Shown: positions 4,712 through 31,686, counted from the stretch's first letter. The stretch is DNA of 32,000 bases from Candidatus Saccharimonadota bacterium (GCF_900128735.1 NZ_LT667503.1:300001-332000), one strand, 5' to 3'. The notes: generated by a model from the sequence alone, not told the origin. Made by a program: numbers and translations.

Positions 4712-5104
4712 TTATCGTTTAGAAAATTGAGGTTTTTTACGAGCTTTGCGTAATCCAAATTTCTTTCTTTCAACTTGACGAGAATCTCGTGTTACAAAAC
4801 CAGCCTCTCTGAGATTAGCTCTTAATGTATCGTTATATTTAATTAACACACGAGTTATACCTTGACGGATTGCTCCTGCTTGCCCAGATGTTCCGCCTCC
4901 CTTTACAGTAATATAAAAATCAAATTTGTTTAACATGCCAACTAATTCTAATGGCTGTTTAACTATCATACAAGCGGTTTTTCTACTAAAATATCTCTCT
5001 AAAGACCTTTTATTAATTAAAATATTTCCTTTTCCTATACGTAAAAAAATACGCGCTGAAGAACATTTACGACGACCTGTTCCATAATGTATAATTTGTG
5101 ACAT
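4712..5104 (-). CDS. rpsI: 30S ribosomal protein S9
   Basis: The 130 aa product ends ...[12 protein letters not shown] and contains [19 protein letters not shown], the S9 signature. It is in the rplM-rpsI operon arrangement. Confidence 0.97.
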
Positions 5105-5906: not shown

Positions 5907-7067
5907 ATGAATAAAAAAAATATCTTAGACTTGTTACGAAATAAAATTAATTATATTGACCAAAAAATTATTACACTTTTGAGTCAAAGACAATCCTTAT
6001 CTATTGATATAATAAATAAAAAAATTAATTATGGATTAAAAATCCGCGATTCTATTCGTGAAAATATATTATTTAAAAAATTATATACACTCTGTTTAAA
6101 AAAAAATATTGATTATCAATATATTACAAAAATCTTTAAGACTATTATTAATAATTCAGTTCAAATACAAGAAGAATGGAATCAAAAAGTTAAAAAATTA
6201 GATATAGATAAAAAAAAAATAAATTGCGCAGTATTAGGTCCTCAAGGATCATATTCTAACCTACTTTTTAATATTTTATTAAAAGAAAAAAAATTTTTTC
6301 TGAAAGAGTATGAATGTTTAACGTTTGAATCTATTATTAAAAGTTTACATAATAATACCTGTCAATTTGCTTTATTACCTATTAAAAATAGTATTGCAGG
6401 TATAATTCCTGAAACTTATAAAATACTACAAAAACAAAAGTTATATATTATTCAAGAAATTTATGTAAAAATTAAACATAGTCTTCTAGCCGTCAAGGGA
6501 ACTTATTTTTCTCAAATAAATAATATATACAGTCACATACAACCTATACAACAATGCAGTATATTTATAAAAAATTTTTCACATTGGAAAATTAATTACA
6601 CAAATAGTACCGCAAAAGCCATGCAAACTATTTTTTTAAAAAACGATCATCATGTAGCAGTCATCGGCAATAAAAAAGGTGGAAAACTATATAATTTAAA
6701 AACACTTGCAAAAAATTTATCCAATAAACCAAACAATATTACTCGATTTATTCTATTATCAAAAAAGAAAAAAAAAATAATTCCAAACAAATCTCAAAAA
6801 ACTACATTTTTTATAAATTTTATAAATAATAATTTCAATATAAAAAATATCATAAATGTTTTCAGAGAAAAAAACTTAAATCTTGAAAATATCATAAAAT
6901 ACCCTGATATTAAAAATAACGATCAAGAAACATATTATTTTGATGTTGATTCAGTTATTAATATCTCTATACTAAAAAATTATTTAAAAATTTTTAAAAA
7001 AGAAATAAATAAAATAGATACGCTAGGGTCTTACGAAACTGTAAAAAAAGTAATAGATATTGAATAA
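5907..7067 (+). CDS. pheA: Bifunctional chorismate mutase / prephenate dehydratase (P-protein)
   Basis: The 386 aa product has an N-terminal chorismate mutase helix region (LLRNKINYIDQKIITLLSQRQSLSIDI) and a prephenate dehydratase core (CAVLGPQGSYSN ... NITRFILL). It also has a C-terminal ACT-like domain that aligns with E. coli PheA but has diverged motifs (see findings). Confidence 0.93.
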   Translation: MNKKNILDLLRNKINYIDQKIITLLSQRQSLSIDIINKKINYGLKIRDSIRENILFKKLYTLCLKKNIDYQYITKIFKTIINNSVQIQEEWNQKVKKLDIDKKKINCAVLGPQGSYSNLLFNILLKEKKFFLKEYECLTFESIIKSLHNNTCQFALLPIKNSIAGIIPETYKILQKQKLYIIQEIYVKIKHSLLAVKGTYFSQINNIYSHIQPIQQCSIFIKNFSHWKINYTNSTAKAMQTIFLKNDHHVAVIGNKKGGKLYNLKTLAKNLSNKPNNITRFILLSKKKKKIIPNKSQKTTFFINFINNNFNIKNIINVFREKNLNLENIIKYPDIKNNDQETYYFDVDSVINISILKNYLKIFKKEINKIDTLGSYETVKKVIDIE

Positions 7068-17975: not shown

Positions 17976-18718
17976 ATGAAAGAAAAAAAGAATCCAATAA
18001 ATTTTCCACGCATTTATTACAATGACTTTTTAAAAATTAATAATATAATACTTTTAGAAAAAAAAATAAAACATTATATTATTAATGTATTACGTATGAA
18101 AATGGGAGATATGATTACAATCTTTAATAATACTAATTATATTTATTATTCTAAAATCATTAATGTTCAAAAAAATAAAATAAAAATTCACATCATAAAA
18201 AAAAAAAAGAAAATAACGAATCACCCATCCGTATACACCTCATACAAATAATTTCTAAAAAAGAAAAAATGAATTTTACGATTGAAAAATCTGTGGAACT
18301 AGGGGTTAGCACTATTACACCCATTATCTCTGATCAACCCGTCAAATATTGTTTAAAAAAAAAAATAAAATACTGGAATAATATAATTATTTCTGCATGT
18401 GCACAATCAAAAAGAAATATTATTCCAAAATTATACCAACCAAAAAAACTAAACGAATGGAATAAAACTGTTCCTTCTAAAGCAGTTAAAATTTATTTTC
18501 ATAGAAAGGCTAATAATAAAATTAATCAAATTCAAAATAAAAATTTAAAAAATATATATTTAATAGTCGGACCGGAAAAAGGATTTTCAAAAAATGAAAT
18601 GGAATATATGAATAAGAAGAGTTTTTTATCTATATCTTTAGGTCCTAGAATATTACGTACTGAAACAGCAGCTATTACAGCCATTACAAGCGTACAAATA
18701 TTATTAGGAGATATATAA
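17976..18718 (+). pseudogene. rsmE: 16S rRNA m3U1498 methyltransferase RsmE (YggJ), interrupted by a frameshift in an A12 tract
   Basis: The two track ORFs (17976-18251 and 18269-18718) together align with full-length E. coli RsmE. ORF1 carries FPRIYYNDF...NVLRMKMGDMITIF (E. coli IPRIYHPE...RVLRMGPGQALQLF). ORF2 carries MNFTIEKSVELGVSTITP...LIVGPEKGFS..E......LGPRILRTETAAITAIT. Reading the ORF2 frame upstream from 18209 gives ENNESPIRIHLIQIISKKEKMNFT, matching E. coli [24 protein letters not shown]. The frames therefore switch inside the A run at 18197-18208. Confidence 0.85.
18197..18208 (+). repeat. A12 homopolymer at the rsmE frame switch
   Basis: Counted directly: catcat-AAAAAAAAAAAA-gaaaataacg. 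One extra A, or two fewer, restores a single 247-codon rsmE reading frame. Confidence 0.95.
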
Positions 18719-23778: not shown

Positions 23779-23795
23779 GGGGTTTTATAAACCCC
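23779..23795. terminator. Short GC-containing hairpin just after eno
   Basis: GGGGTTT (23779-23785) pairs with AAACCCC (23789-23795) around a 3 nt loop, 8 nt after the eno stop. It is preceded by A6 and followed by GAAATATATT. The T-run therefore lies on the minus-strand side, so its orientation as an eno terminator is imperfect. Confidence 0.4.
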
Positions 23796-23864
23796 GAAAT
23801 ATATTAATTAAAATTTTAAATAGATACTCATAAAATTTACTAATAAAAAAGAAATCTATATATG

Positions 23865-23876
23865 AAAAAAAAAAAA
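23865..23876 (+). repeat. A12 homopolymer between the upstream ATG (23862) and the polA reading frame
   Basis: As written, ATG-A12-TAATACTTATGGATGG encodes MKKKK-stop. With one extra A it reads MKKKKIILMDGHF..., which matches E. coli ...NPLILVDGSS. Confidence 0.9.
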
Positions 23877-23884
23877 TAATACTT

Positions 23885-24793
23885 ATGGATGGTCATTTTT
23901 GTATGTACAAAATATATTTTGCATATCCTCAATTAAAAAATAAATTTGGAGAATCTACTTCTATTTTGTATGGTATTATAAAACTCATAAAATCTATAAT
24001 TATGAAATTTTTGCCAGAAACCATTATATTTATTTTTGATACATCTACTAAAACATTTCGTCATCAGTTATATAAAAAATATAAATCAAATCGATTATCC
24101 GCCCCAAAAAATTTATATTCTCAAATAAAACCATTAAAAAAAATTATTAAATATATGGGGATTCCAATTGTTTCTAGAAAGAACATAGAAGCCGATGATA
24201 TTATAGGAACTTTAAGTCAATTTTTTCAAAAAAAAAATTTTCATAGTATTATTTATAGCGCCGATAAAGATATGACTCAATTAATTAACAAAAATATTTC
24301 CATTAATCCGGGAAATATTAATAAAAAACTTTTAAAAAAAAAAGATGTTCAAAAAATATATGGAGTCAATCCCAAATCAATAGCGGATTTTTTAAGTTTA
24401 GTAGGTGATCCGTCAGATAATATTCCTGGCGTTTCTGGTATTGGAAAAAAAACAGCAATAATTTTAATAAAATATTTTCATTCCATAAAAAAAATTTATA
24501 AAAACATAAAAGAAATAAAAAAATTACCTATCCGAGGCATTACAAAAAAAATAGAATATTTAAAAATCGGTAAAAAAAATGCATTCTTATCCTATCAATT
24601 AACTAAGATTAAAAAAGATTTGAATTTCAACTATAAAAAATTAGATTTAATGTTAAAAAAACCAAACCCAAAAATGTTAATTAAAGAATTTAAATATTAT
24701 CAACTCAATCAATATCTAAAAGAAATATCTAATAACAACTTTATAATTATAAATTGGTATAAAAAAATAAATAATTCTAAAAAAAAAAGATGA
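23885..24793 (+). CDS. polA: PolA N-terminal fragment: 5'-3' exonuclease (FEN-like 5' nuclease), potentially a stand-alone protein
   Basis: The 302 aa product keeps every acidic active-site cluster of the E. coli PolA 5' nuclease: LMDGHF (LVDGSS), FIFDTST (VVFDAKG), NIEADDIIGTL (GVEADDVIGTL), SADKDMTQL (TGDKDMAQL) and GDPSDNIPGVSGIG (GDSSDNIPGVPGVG). It ends at the TGA at 24791-24793. Confidence 0.8.
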   Translation: MDGHFCMYKIYFAYPQLKNKFGESTSILYGIIKLIKSIIMKFLPETIIFIFDTSTKTFRHQLYKKYKSNRLSAPKNLYSQIKPLKKIIKYMGIPIVSRKNIEADDIIGTLSQFFQKKNFHSIIYSADKDMTQLINKNISINPGNINKKLLKKKDVQKIYGVNPKSIADFLSLVGDPSDNIPGVSGIGKKTAIILIKYFHSIKKIYKNIKEIKKLPIRGITKKIEYLKIGKKNAFLSYQLTKIKKDLNFNYKKLDLMLKKPNPKMLIKEFKYYQLNQYLKEISNNNFIIINWYKKINNSKKKR

Positions 24794-24799
24794 AAATCT

Positions 24800-25411
24800 A
24801 TGTATAAAATCATTGATAATGTAATCCAATTAAAAAAATTATGTCTCATGTTAAAAAAAAATACATTTGTAATATCATTACATTTAAAAAATAAAAAATC
24901 GGATAATATTTCAATACGCGGATTAATTTTTTCTACTAAATTTAATAAACATTGGTATTGTACAAATTCTCTTCAATCTACTAGAAATAAAAAACCTTTT
25001 TTCAATATTAAAATCATATTATGTATTTTAAAACCAATACTAGAAAATAATAAATATGTAAAAATTGGTAAAAATATGAAATTTATTTACCATATTTTAA
25101 AAAAATATAATATTACCCTTCAAGGTATTAAATTTGATTCACTTGTTATATATTATTTATTTAATCCTATTGATAAATTTTATATAGAATTAAAAAATTT
25201 AATTCAAAATTATGACGAGAAAGATGAATACTACGACATCAATAAAATTATAAATAATGCGAATTTATCTTACAAAATTTATAAAAAAAGTCAGCATTAT
25301 TTTTTAAAAGAAGATACACAGAGAATACTTTTTGAATCGATAGATATGCCTTTAGTCAGTATACTAGCTGCCATGGAAAACCATGGAATTCTTATAAAAA
25401 AAAAAGACTAA
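24800..25411 (+). pseudogene. polA: PolA middle fragment: degenerate 3'-5' exonuclease domain plus the start of the polymerase thumb
   Basis: It is in the same frame as the N-fragment, beginning 6 nt after the TGA. KIIDNVIQLKKLCLMLKKNTFVISLHLKNKKSDNIS aligns with E. coli TILDEETLKAWIAKLEKAPVFAFDTETDSLDNIS. ...IDMPLVSILAAMENHGILI aligns with E. coli NIEMPLVPVLSRIERNGVKI. It ends at the TAA at 25409-25411, just after the A10 tract. Confidence 0.75.
25396..25405 (+). repeat. A10 homopolymer at the polA frame switch
   Basis: Counted directly: cttat-AAAAAAAAAA-gactaa. The upstream frame stops at 25409. The frame that continues the PolA homology is open from 25336 and needs one extra A to be joined. 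Confidence 0.95.
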
Positions 25412-26544
25412 AAAAACAAAAAAAAAAAATAGCTAAAATAATTACTCAATTAAAAAAAAATATATACTGCATAGTTGGTAAAAAATTTAATATTAATTCT
25501 ACAGTTAAAATACAAGAAATTTTATTTAATAAATATAAATTACCTATAATTAAAAAAACAAAAAACGGAAAATTTTCTACTGATGAACAAGTATTAAAAA
25601 GACTATCTTCTTACCATATCTTACCAAAAGTTCTTTTGAAATATCGAACATTATATAAAATTAATACCACTTACATACTGAAATTACCAAAAAAAATAAA
25701 CATTCTTACTGGACGAATACATACAACTTATAATCAATATTTAACATCTACAGGACGATTATCTTCCAGTAAACCAAATTTACAAAATATACCTATAAGA
25801 ACAAAAATAGGAAAAAAAATAAGAACCGCATTCATAGCAAAAAATAAATGGATTTTATTAACAGCAGATTATTCACAAATAGAATTACGCATTTTAGCTC
25901 ATTATTCTAAAGACAAAAAATTGATCACGGAACTATTTAACAATATTGATTTACACTCTGCTACTGCATCCAATATTTTTCAAAATCAAGAAATCAATAA
26001 AATTGATAAAATACATCGAGAAATAGGAAAAAAAGTAAATTTTTCTATTATTTATGGTATTAGCGCTTTTGGTCTCTCTAGACAATTAAATGTCAGCCTC
26101 TCTACAGCTCGAGAATATATAAAAAAATATTTTAATAAATATGTTGATATAAAAAAATATATTGATCAAACTCACAAAAATACAGAAAAAAAAGAATATA
26201 TAAAAACATTATTTTCAAGAAAAATATATATTCCGAATATTAATTCAACAAATAAAATATTAAAAAACTCTGCAAAAAGATTTTGTATTAATGCTATCAT
26301 ACAAAGCACTGCTTCTGATATAATAAAAAAATCTATGATTAATATTGATTTATTTCTAAAAAATAAAAAAATAGACGCAAAATTAATTATGCAAATACAT
26401 GACGAATTAATCTTTGAAATTCAAGAAGAAAAAAAAAATTCAATCAGTCATAAAATTAAATATTTAATGGAAAACTGTGTTAAATTAAGAGTTCCACTCA
26501 AAGTATCAATTAAAACAGGAAAAAATTGGGGTAATATTATATAA
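25396..26544 (+). pseudogene. polA: PolA C-terminal part: polymerase domain (thumb, palm, fingers) with intact catalytic motifs but no ATG/GTG/TTG start for its first 240 nt
   Basis: Hand translation from about 25396 in the frame of the 25636 ORF gives KKKRLKKQKKKIAKIITQLKKNIYCIVGKKFNINSTVKIQEILFNKYKLPIIKKTKNGKFSTDEQVLKRLSSYHILPKVLLKYRTLYKINTTY. This matches E. coli ...[68 protein letters not shown]. Downstream motifs are retained: TSTGRLSSSKPNLQNIP, motif A LTADYSQIELRILAH, motif B HREIGKKVNFSIIYG and motif C MQIHDELIFE. Confidence 0.8.
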
Positions 26545-30587: not shown

Positions 30588-31686
30588 ATGTTAGAAATTT
30601 CAAATATCAAAAAAAAAATAATAGATTTTAATAATAGAATTCAATATTTAAAGAGGATTCTTTGAATATAAAAGTAAAAAAAAAAAAATCACAGTTATTA
30701 ATAATCAATTAAAATCTTCAGAAATATGGAAAAATATTAAAAAAATCTATACTTTAAAAAAAGAAAAAAAAAAAACAAAAAAATTAATAAAAAAGATAGA
30801 ATATTTAATTAATAATATACAAGATTTAAAAATATGGATGGAAATTTTATTAAAAAATTATGATGTAAATATTTTATCTGAAATTAAAATTATATTTAAA
30901 AAATTAGAAAAAAAAATAAAAAAATTAGAAATATATCAATTATTTTCTCAAAAATATGACTTTAATAATTGTTATATCGATATCCAACCCGGATCAGGAG
31001 GAATAGAAGCTCAAGACTGGGCTAAAAAATTACTACGAATGTATCTTAAATGGGCTGAAATAAAAAATTTTTCTTCTTATATTACAGAAGAATCTCCTGG
31101 TGATAATAATGGTATTAAATCAGCTACCGTTAAAATAAAAGGGAAATATGCATTTGGATGGTGTCGTACAGAATCAGGAATTCATCGATTAGTTCGTAAA
31201 AGTCCTTTTAATACAAATAATAAACGACATACATCATTTTGTTCTATATTTGTATATCCCGAAATAAAAGAAAATAAAAAAATTATTTTAAATTCATCTA
31301 ATTTACGAATTGATGTATATAGAGCATCTGGTGCTGGAGGGCAACATGTGAATTGCACTGAATCGGCAGTAAGAATTACTCATGTTCCTACCGGAATATC
31401 TACTCAATGTCAAAGTAGTCGTTCACAACATAAAAACAAAGATCTCGCATTAAAACAATTAATATCTAAAATTCATATATTAGAAGAACAAAGAATAAAC
31501 TTAAAGAAAAAAATAAAGAACAAAAACAAATTAGATATTGGTTGGGGAAATCAAATTCGTTCATATATATTAGATAATTCTCTTGTTAAAGATTTAAGAA
31601 CAGGGATAGAAATGTATGATACACAATTAATACTAGATGGTCATTTAAGTCAATTTATTGAAAAAAGTTTAAAATTGGGGTTATAA
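30588..31686 (+). CDS. prfB: Peptide chain release factor 2, encoded in two frames joined by a programmed +1 ribosomal frameshift (30588-30662 joined to 30664-31686)
   Basis: Frame 0 reads ATG 30588 ... MLEISNIKKKIIDFNNRIQYLKRIL and then TGA at 30663. The +1 frame is open from 30664 (EYKSKKKKITVINNQL...) into the track ORF 30838-31686. That ORF carries DIQPGSGGIEAQDWA, the RKSPF (SPF) motif and SGAGGQHVN (GGQ). The architecture is the same as in E. coli prfB. Confidence 0.93.
30652..30666 (+). promoter_or_regulatory. prfB autoregulatory +1 frameshift cassette: internal SD-like GAGG, 3 nt spacer, CTT TGA A
   Basis: The sequence is aaGAGGattCTTTGAa. E. coli has aGGGGGuauCUUUGAc, with the same 3 nt spacing between the SD-like element and the CUU slippery codon. 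Confidence 0.85.

Follow-up and report, generated by a model that had tools for sequence, protein, structure and literature searches.

Can a gene for DNA polymerase I that is unreadable as one protein still be in use, or is it caught mid-decay? The question is raised by the polA locus in a 32,000-nucleotide (nt) stretch of DNA (GCF_900128735.1 NZ_LT667503.1:300001-332000), which we call the window and whose coordinates are used throughout. Here polA does not run as a single uninterrupted frame, being broken by one nonsense codon and by two frameshifts in runs of A. An earlier note on this DNA had left both outcomes open: decay, perhaps very recent, or expression in pieces. We consider it likely that this is a live polA, made as two proteins and dependent on slippage at its A runs. 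Purifying selection has acted on the gene since before the window separated from a sister lineage, which argues that it is still in use.

The features of the locus are collected in Table 1. The three pieces at 23885-24793, 24800-25411 and 25405-26544 tile a complete DNA polymerase I, covering positions 6-285, 305-510 and 512-887 of the NCBIfam profile PRK05755 (DNA polymerase I, 889 positions). The earlier note had located two A tracts, A12 and A10 (the latter at 25396), and between them an in-frame TGA at 24791; all are present at these coordinates. It had also described the locus as colinear with full-length PolA without being one protein, which the profile tiling and an alignment to Taq Pol I bear out. 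The homologous frame of the 5' part contains position 23861, and the next ATG in that frame is at 23885 (MDGHF...). The frame of the second open reading frame (ORF2) ends at TAA 25409-25411, and the frame to which the homology moves is open from 25336 (after TGA 25333-25335) to TAA 26542-26544. Since the new frame opens after 25335 and the old one closes at 25409, the second correction site is tightly bounded, and the A10 run at 25396 is the sole homopolymer between TGA 25333-25335 and TAA 25409-25411. In the polymerase frame, the first canonical start is TTG 25636, with no ATG, GTG or TTG before it, and the first ATG is at 26335.

Table 1. Features of the polA locus, in window coordinates.
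Feature	Position	Strand	Remark
ATA, in frame with polA, 4 nt 5' of the ancestral ATG	23858..23860	+	ATG in the sister lineage
Ancestral polA start ATG, now out of frame	23862..23864	+	in-frame counterpart in L002, BCt, C. strobi and BCc
A12 run	23865..23876	+	ancestral ATG-AAT-A10 has lost its T; TAA 23877-23879 is next
ORF1, 5' nuclease (FEN-like) domain, 302 codons	23885..24793	+	ATG start replacing ancestral ATA; TGA end
In-frame A10 run, 2 nt 5' of the TGA	24779..24788	+	both shifted frames stop within 15 codons
In-frame TGA, linker between 5' nuclease and Klenow-like part	24791..24793	+	same frame as ATG 24800
ORF2 up to the shift site	24800..25405	+	degenerate 3'-5' exonuclease-like domain and first polymerase-domain residues
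Hairpin CCATGG-AAAA-CCATGG	25371..25386	+	9 nt 5' of the shifted A10 run
A10 run with frameshift	25396..25405	+	BCc has an in-frame A11 here, longer by one A; homology continues in the frame of 23863
Polymerase domain (thumb, palm, fingers), 379 codons and stop	25405..26544	+	shifted frame; TAA 26542-26544

Judged by its sequence, the window comes from a member of the Cinara tujafilina clade of Buchnera aphidicola. A RefSeq Buchnera aphidicola protein matches the polymerase piece at 100% identity, the closest named relative is the Buchnera of Cinara tujafilina (BCt), and the G+C content is 20-27%. A neighbour-joining tree of TypA and Eno has the topology ((window, sister), BCt), followed by the relative L002 and then by L010, with strain BCc and a C. 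strobi strain outside. The sister lineage (samples ERZ27237414, ERZ27237428 and DRR198868) is represented by separate contigs from independent assemblies: L001 (ENA), which spans the 3' exonuclease part of polA to ygfZ, and L007 (ENA) and L008 (Logan), which span glnS, eno and the start of polA. The gap between these contigs corresponds to window 24245-25117 and includes the linker. The related loci were fetched one by one via exact-protein matches, which gave no record for four queries (ORF1, P0001, P0005 and P0006). A scan of contigs with peptide patterns from the polymerase piece, which were too specific, matched a Chlamydiaceae polA only.

The ratio of nonsynonymous to synonymous substitution rates (dN/dS, or omega) was calculated between the window and the sister lineage, and is given below as NG86/YN00 pairs; the Fisher test compares the proportions of nonsynonymous (pN) and synonymous (pS) differences. 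For deeper pairs NG86 alone was used (YN00 failed on these saturated comparisons), and their dS of 0.7-1.5 is saturated. The 5' nuclease part gave 0.113/0.044 over 120 codons (Fisher 2.5e-8), the 3' exonuclease part 0.187/0.107 over 96 codons (4e-5), and the polymerase domain after the frameshift 0.176/0.093 (3e-19). In each part pN is below pS, and the ratios lie in the same range as those of the intact neighbours typA (0.048/0.022), eno (0.075/0.045), glnS (0.119/0.046), engB (0.184/0.127) and ygfZ (0.247/0.170). The ratio per domain was a check proposed in the earlier note, which had argued for ongoing selection. Run against a sister that shares the A12 and A10 runs, it is low in all three domains (0.04-0.19), and that argument is upheld.

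The pattern of change points the same way. The polymerase segment carries 123 substitutions and no stop codon, while random placement of these substitutions gives a mean of 5.8 stops (P(none) = 0.002), and a neutral amount of change would give a mean of 12. Against the sister, polA shows two 3-nt gaps in equal-length sequences of 1,427 nt and none in the other 360 nt, and no gap breaks the frame. The spacers between the same genes, about 700 nt in all, show 27 gap events, among them one by which the eno-polA spacer differs in length by 166 nt (90 nt in the window versus 256 nt in the sister lineage). When the amino-acid changes in the Klenow-like part are polarised with BCt and L002, 12 fall on the window branch and 22 on the sister branch, and nothing in this count suggests a recent relaxation on the window branch.

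A plain, recently inactivated pseudogene, in which at least the Klenow-like half has been dead since the TGA arose, is therefore highly improbable in our estimation. Three lesions in a single gene would fit it, as would the undated TGA and the outright loss of the polymerase half, both in most Buchnera (PMC6403173) and in L010. However, two of the three lesions are older than a split with a dS of at least 0.35, and constraint has been strong since then. The window branch has no excess of change, and further stops or frame-breaking indels are absent from a gene in which about 6-12 stops would be expected under neutrality. Between the window and the sister, dN/dS does not come near 1, and stops and indels do not pile up, as they would in a pseudogene. 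Instead, the two frameshifts are conserved between lineages without decay downstream, which is the pattern of endosymbiont frameshift genes.

Pfam matches were obtained to 5_3_exonuc_N (PF02739, 3e-44), 5_3_exonuc (PF01367, 1e-25), DNA_pol_A_exo1 (PF01612, a weak 5e-08) and DNA_pol_A (PF00476, 4e-138), the last over profile positions 4-380 of 381. The conceptually repaired PolA has Taq as its best PDB match by sequence, and aligns to Taq Pol I without a gap through the A10 junction. The 5' nuclease carboxylates are kept (MDGH, FDTS, EADD, ADKD, GDPSDNIPGV), as are all the residues aligned with Taq D18, D67, E117, D119, D120, D142 and D144. Polymerase motif A (DYSQIELR, 25867-25890) aligns with Taq D610, motif B (R..K...F...YG, 26017-26058) with R659/K663/F667/Y671, and motif C (QIHDE, 26392-26406) with D785/E786. 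The acidic clusters and motifs A, B and C that had been reported as conserved in this locus thus match the catalytic residues of Taq.

An active proofreading site is typical of E. coli-type PolA, though not universal. In the window, and in all seven aligned Cinara-associated Buchnera sequences, every residue of proofreading motifs Exo I (DxE), Exo II (D) and Exo III (YxxxD) is replaced, a point that the earlier note does not mention. On this alignment, the 3'-5' exonuclease-like domain is a catalytically dead spacer, as in Taq. It is also the fastest-evolving part of polA (omega 0.27-0.6 in the deeper comparisons). The likeness to Taq and Bst Pol I lies in the replacement of all Exo I, II and III carboxylates in a domain kept as a spacer; the domain of the window, in contrast, is far more diverged.

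How old are the frameshifts? At the A12 site, L002 and BCt read ATG AAT A10 TAATA... (ATGAATAAAAAAAAAA) in frame, and the window reads ATG A12 TAATA.... At the A10 site, BCc reads ...ATA A9 ATA TTA... (an in-frame A11), and the window reads A10 GA CTA. Both A-run frameshifts are, by alignment with these in-frame relatives, one-base deletions. In the sister lineage, L001 shares the A10 run with identical flanks (A10-GACT-A7-C-A12), and L007 and L008 share the A12 run and the ATG preceding the catalytic Asp. Because A12 and A10 are common to the window and the sister lineage, both frameshifts appear, most simply, to be older than the split between them. The synonymous divergence is considerable, with dS of 0.32-0.42 (NG86) and 0.47-0.82 (YN00). 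The suggestion of a gene "caught mid-decay", or inactivated very recently, consequently fails for the two frameshifts, which predate a split at a dS of about 0.35-0.7.

Runs of 10-12 A are a classic site of error, and both shifts lie in such runs, so one might suspect homopolymer sequencing or assembly errors in a gene that is truly in frame. [quoted passage not shown] The BCt genome was presumably read with pyrosequencing. We regard this explanation as extremely unlikely here, since identical run lengths occur in the assemblies of other samples (L001, L007 and L008), the TGA lies outside any homopolymer, and about 60 other A runs of 9-14 are in frame in intact ORFs of the window. A runs being so common, a run by itself is unremarkable, and it is the out-of-frame runs that stand out. 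On the plus strand there are 71 A runs of at least 9 nt and 10 T runs of at least 9 nt (81 in total in 32 kb). These long runs, of up to 14 nt, occur about once per 400 nt, and inside ORFs they are mostly in frame.

A different kind of rescue would act on the DNA. Long A runs are classic hot spots of replication slippage (PMC3017870), relatives vary in run length at both the A12 and the A10 sites, and Buchnera is highly polyploid; run length might flicker, with minority copies or past periods carrying an in-frame A13 or A11 while assemblies display the majority length, and such flicker would likewise yield purifying selection. Conversely, three independent sister assemblies and the window have identical out-of-frame lengths, and a start codon newly gained by the sister in the frame that follows the A12 run makes sense only with A12 as the stable state. 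We find this rescue improbable.

The start codons around the A12 run deserve closer attention. The codons for KKKIIL, the first nuclease strand (aligned with Taq RVLLV), fall between the ancestral ATG and ATG 23885. The latter replaces an ATA of L002, BCt and C. strobi (ATT in BCc) and is common to the sister lineage, which suggests that this start was gained in their common ancestor. The sister lineage has gone further: the ATA at window 23858-23860 has turned into ATG, giving MYEKKKIILMDG... in frame, and this new in-frame ATG makes the A12 lesion harmless there. The alignment at 23858 reads ATA TAT GAA A.. in the window and ATG TAT GAA A.. in L007 and L008, with GTA (BCt) and AAA (L002) in the outgroups. 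Both start-codon gains are A-to-G changes in a genome with 21% G+C, and they look like selection keeping the N-terminus translated. In the window, the nuclease would depend on slippage from ATG 23862, on ATG 23885, or on weak initiation at the ATA.

The third lesion is of another nature. The TGA at 24791 is, from the coding evidence in the window, a true stop: TGA terminates typA and another ORF, Trp is TGG throughout the listed ORFs, and prfB, encoding release factor 2 (RF2), is complete (30588-31686) with its SPF and GGQ motifs intact. Reading TGA as Trp (genetic code 4) is ruled out by these TGA-ending ORFs, by the TGG-only Trp and by the intact RF2. A bypass of the TGA via slippage at the A10 run at 24779, a run that the earlier note does not mention, was also rejected, on account of the early stops in both shifted frames (Table 1) and because ORF2 shares the frame of ORF1. 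The downstream A7 and A12 runs were likewise rejected as sites where the second frameshift might be corrected, the old frame having already stopped at 25409. In the linker, which is short and fast-evolving, BCt reads ...KKR YEF MYKIIDN... and the window ...KKKR * KS MYKIIDN.... The BCt Met aligned with ATG 24800 indicates that this ATG is an ancestral methionine, and only 6 nt separate the stop at 24791-24793 from it. With a true stop and no slippage bypass, the gene does consist of two cistrons, one for the 5' nuclease and one for the Klenow-like part.

The prfB gene has itself kept its programmed +1 frameshift. ATG 30588 opens a stretch of 24 codons that leads to CTT TGA A at 30660-30666; a Shine-Dalgarno-like AGAGGA lies ahead of it (30652-30669 overall). 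The body of the gene lies in the +1 frame, and the ORF listing shows just its 282-aa tail.

A simpler account would dispense with recoding. The nuclease would start at ATG 23885, ORF2 would be made alone, and the polymerase would begin at a downstream or non-canonical start, the products acting as fragments or assembling non-covalently. ATG 23885 is a derived start codon shared with the sister, and the RefSeq model of the locus has two separate products, a "5'-3' exonuclease" of 296 aa and a "DNA polymerase A family protein" of 360 aa. Nevertheless, we hold this account to be very improbable. Despite the lack of any canonical start before 25636, or of any ATG before 26335, the 77 codons from the A10 run to TTG 25636 are constrained (omega 0.17, p = 5e-4), and since no canonical start precedes them, they are translatable only by ribosomes entering from the other frame. 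Additionally, the A10 break lies off any domain boundary, about 23 residues inside the polymerase domain (aligned with Taq 424-446).

We propose that the TGA cuts polA at a flexible linker into a stand-alone 5' nuclease and a Klenow-like polymerase with a dead proofreading site. The Klenow-like cistron would start at ATG 24800, probably by termination-reinitiation. At each of the A12 and A10 lesions, re-reading one base would restore the frame, either through backward slippage of RNA polymerase, which inserts an additional A, or through a -1 ribosomal slip on A_AAA_AAA. The corrected readings would be ATG AAA AAA AAA AAA ATA ATA CTT ATG GAT and ATA AAA AAA AAA AGA CTA, so that each protein would in part be made at full length (nuclease MKKKKIIL-MDG..., polymerase ...ILIKKK-RLKKQ...). 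Alternatively, the nuclease may be initiated at ATG 23885. The predicted products include NHGILIKKKRLKKQKKKIAK..., and the predicted N-termini are MKKKKIILMDG, MDGHF and MYKIIDNV. Of the explanations offered in the earlier note, the best reading, given the dN/dS of 0.04-0.19, is that separate polypeptides are made and/or that slippage corrects the mRNA.

Such slippage would be in keeping with transcription in Buchnera. Among its transcription insertions, 151 of 157 lie in homopolymeric runs, all of those in A or T runs; 80% are single-base, and insertions become exponentially more frequent as runs lengthen to 11 nt (PMC5574713). A single-base insertion at an A run, the event needed at both polA sites, is therefore a common product of slippage. 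In frameshifted genes of endosymbionts (Buchnera, Blochmannia), 12-50% (about 30%) of transcripts are corrected (PMC5009743), and some poly(A) frameshifts of endosymbionts are conserved between species (PMC3017870; PMC5009743). Both polA sites have the form seen in such genes, a single-base indel in an A run of at least 9 with the frame otherwise kept, and the TGA is a separate lesion.

The ribosome, and not RNA polymerase, might make the correction. A -1 frameshift on A_AAA_AAA, with tRNA-Lys slipping, would correct an unedited mRNA and make the same proteins; it is a variant of the slippage we propose, and both may contribute. Both sites need an exact -1 shift, and both are pure A runs with A_AAA_AAA in the zero-frame register. 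A zero-frame stop lies at or just past each run (TAA 23877 and TAA 25409), and frameshifting on A runs has long been known (PMC5009743). Conversely, neither a structure downstream nor a Shine-Dalgarno-like stimulator upstream is apparent, and the sequence after the A10 run is near-pure A/T. No G+C-containing structure was found 3' of either run, and the only nearby structure is a hairpin upstream, at 25371-25386, in a non-canonical position. Moreover, the published evidence on endosymbiont poly(A) frameshifts is for heterogeneity at the RNA level (PMC5009743; PMC3017870). We rate the ribosomal route as rather unlikely; ribosomal and RNA polymerase slippage are inseparable in this analysis.

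Several points weigh against a live gene dependent on slippage. The lengths of the A10 and A12 runs are hypermutable, and parallel losses or a flicker in and out of frame could in principle explain their sharing. The TGA is undated, window 24245-25117 lying outside the sister contigs, and translation of the Klenow-like part may have been lost recently without leaving a trace. The pairwise dN/dS is an average across both lineages. Slippage, reinitiation and the production of full-length protein, as well as their levels, are deduced from the DNA. A start at ATG 23885 drops the first beta-strand of the nuclease fold and may give a poor enzyme. Finally, Traverse and Ochman saw no frame-restoring transcription error in Buchnera LSR1 (PMC5574713), which makes the yield uncertain.

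A comparable split was observed in another gene of the window. The rsmE gene (16S rRNA m3U1498 methyltransferase) is divided between two frames, at 17976-18251 (profile positions 3-76) and 18269-18718 (positions 92-245). The frame changes at an A12 run (18197-18208), where re-reading one base, as at the polA sites, would correct it. In the relative L010, rsmE encodes an uninterrupted product of 252 aa.

The hairpin upstream of the A10 run, CCATGGAAAACCATGG at 25371-25386 (-8.7 kcal/mol), is perfect, with a G+C-rich stem of 6 bp; the 32 kb hold only two such hairpins, compared with a mean of 0.1 in shuffled sequence. It was acquired on the branch ancestral to the window and the sister, via two substitutions against the A+T bias, and the sister lineage keeps it via a G.U pair (-8.3). 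Four relatives without the A10 frameshift have no comparable stem (0 to -2.6 kcal/mol). Because frameshift and hairpin both arose on one branch, their association carries no statistical weight. One might suppose that together they form a retained recoding site, which sets a low, fixed yield of polymerase relative to 5' nuclease, for example via RNA polymerase pausing on entry to the run; we judge this quite improbable. In the Roseiflexus IS630 element, a hairpin of similar size next to a slippery motif stimulates slippage (PMC5009743; Penno et al. 2015). Both hairpins have a 6-bp stem and a 4-nt loop and lie upstream of the slippery run. However, the IS630 hairpin abuts its motif and promotes deletion, whereas the polA hairpin lies 9 nt upstream of a run where insertion is needed, so the geometries do not match. 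The -1 frameshift of E. coli dnaX (A_AAA_AAG) and the transcriptional slippage of Thermus dnaX likewise have a slippery run in common with polA. Compared with programmed recoding at A/T runs, there is no evidence of an adaptive frameshift in this locus.

The other G+C-rich hairpin (GGGGTTTTATAAACCCC) stands directly after eno, at 23779-23795 (about 4360-4378 in L007), and is conserved in the sister. It resembles a terminator, though the scan put the T tail on the minus strand.

Comparison with other Buchnera places the window between the intact and the reduced forms of polA. They share the locus eno - polA - engB - typA and the degenerate proofreading domain, at 57-70% identity. The polA of the window, in contrast, is neither intact nor reduced, having a linker split and two frameshifts, while APS and most strains have a nuclease of about 290 aa. 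In BCc, polA is one ORF of 886 aa. In BCt, it is fused at the linker and called as 865 aa, with the last ~30 residues in another frame after A7CA6. The relative L002 has a nuclease ORF of 325 aa and a Klenow-like ORF of 593 aa, which overlap in different frames at the linker. In the Buchnera of C. piceae and C. curvipes, a poly(A) frameshift falls at the linker; the submitters joined the parts into 893 and 892 aa, and RefSeq gives about 315 aa plus 494 or 555 aa. One C. strobi assembly has a TGA and a TAA in the dead exonuclease domain, where another has Trp and Tyr and is intact at 884 aa. In L010, a 311-aa nuclease is followed by engB, and the polymerase half is gone.

Some of these loci call for a remark. 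In BCt (L005, CP001817.1), at about 6540-6680, the end of PolA (...DIKNLMENCVNLKIPLHVSIKTGKNWGNVK) is out of frame, and the 865-aa call ends early and overlaps engB; either a true lesion or a misread homopolymer could account for this. In C. strobi (L003, LR025085.1), the two stops are accompanied by five amino-acid differences within about 15 codons (4746-4787), and the intact PolA of the other assembly is P0123. In L010 (Logan SRR33594963, 5001-6644), engB begins 96 nt after the nuclease. L010 is basal to the clade of the window, BCt and L002, and its deletion of the Klenow-like part is apparently independent of the loss in other Buchnera.

In the literature, 16 of 18 Buchnera genomes keep the 5' nuclease alone, and polA frameshifts in Buchnera are said to be rare and in most cases to separate the two parts (PMC6403173). 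The papers that our literature search covered contain no mention of polA frameshifts in Cinara-associated Buchnera. The breaks at the linker in several relatives indicate that the linker is a recurrent breaking point. The polymerase half has been lost more than once. The polA of the window would then represent a stage that is split but still selected. The statement in the earlier note that sequenced Buchnera keep only the exonuclease holds for most strains (16/18, PMC6403173), but not for the Cinara-associated ones, in which BCc, BCt and the symbionts of C. piceae, C. curvipes and C. strobi keep the whole gene. Its further suggestion, that this locus is an intermediate on the way to an exonuclease-only gene, describes a plausible trajectory in view of the recurrent linker breaks and the L010 deletion, but the polymerase half of the window is not decaying. 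Across the clade, repeated breaks at the linker and one deletion of the polymerase are a likely route to the nuclease-only Buchnera.

Genes with poly(A) frameshifts are known from other endosymbionts (Tamas et al. 2008; Wernegreen et al. 2010), including dnaX, dnaG and pth of Blochmannia vafer (via PMC3017870 and PMC5009743). The polA of the window resembles them in having a one-base indel in a run of 10-12 A in an otherwise intact gene with a role in DNA replication or repair, and in that the lesion is shared by diverged lineages whose rates are not accelerated. It differs in having two such sites and a nonsense codon in one gene, and in that one of the two sites has been neutralised by a new start codon in the sister lineage. 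In those genes slippage is known, whereas here it is proposed from sequence.

The split at the linker also has natural counterparts. In the naturally split Pol I (PolA.1 nuclease and PolA.2 exonuclease-polymerase), the break likewise lies between the domains, in the linker, and both active sites are preserved, one in each half. The window differs in that the division is due to one nonsense codon in a still-colinear gene, in which stop and next ATG are close neighbours. The 5' nuclease and Klenow fragments of E. coli PolA are separable and active.

We regard this broken but used polA as a fresh, well-dated instance of a known endosymbiont phenomenon, and as no new mechanism. Its value is that of a clean, datable case in which a tiny genome uses a gene after its frame has been broken: the lesions came first, and strong selection went on after them. 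It also carries a warning for annotation, against taking such endosymbiont genes for pseudogenes or for two unrelated short proteins. The polA of the window is already in a public genome, annotated as two short proteins.

Turning to the remainder of the window, a promoter scan gave fewer hits than shuffled sequence does and was hence uninformative, and the Rfam matches were five tRNAs only. The window carries a compact set of housekeeping genes: greA, rplU, rpmA, obgE, rpsI, rplM, pheA, ffh, rpsP, rimM, trmD, rplS, tldD, aroQ, rluD, alaS, rsmE, zapA, rpiA, glnS, eno, polA, engB, typA, ygfZ and prfB. Between greA and rplU there is an ORF of 86 aa (1771-2031) that ends in TGA and has no NCBIfam match, followed by about 770 nt without an ORF of at least 80 aa. 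This region (1771-2801) may hold the remains of a gene or a small gene that has escaped recognition.

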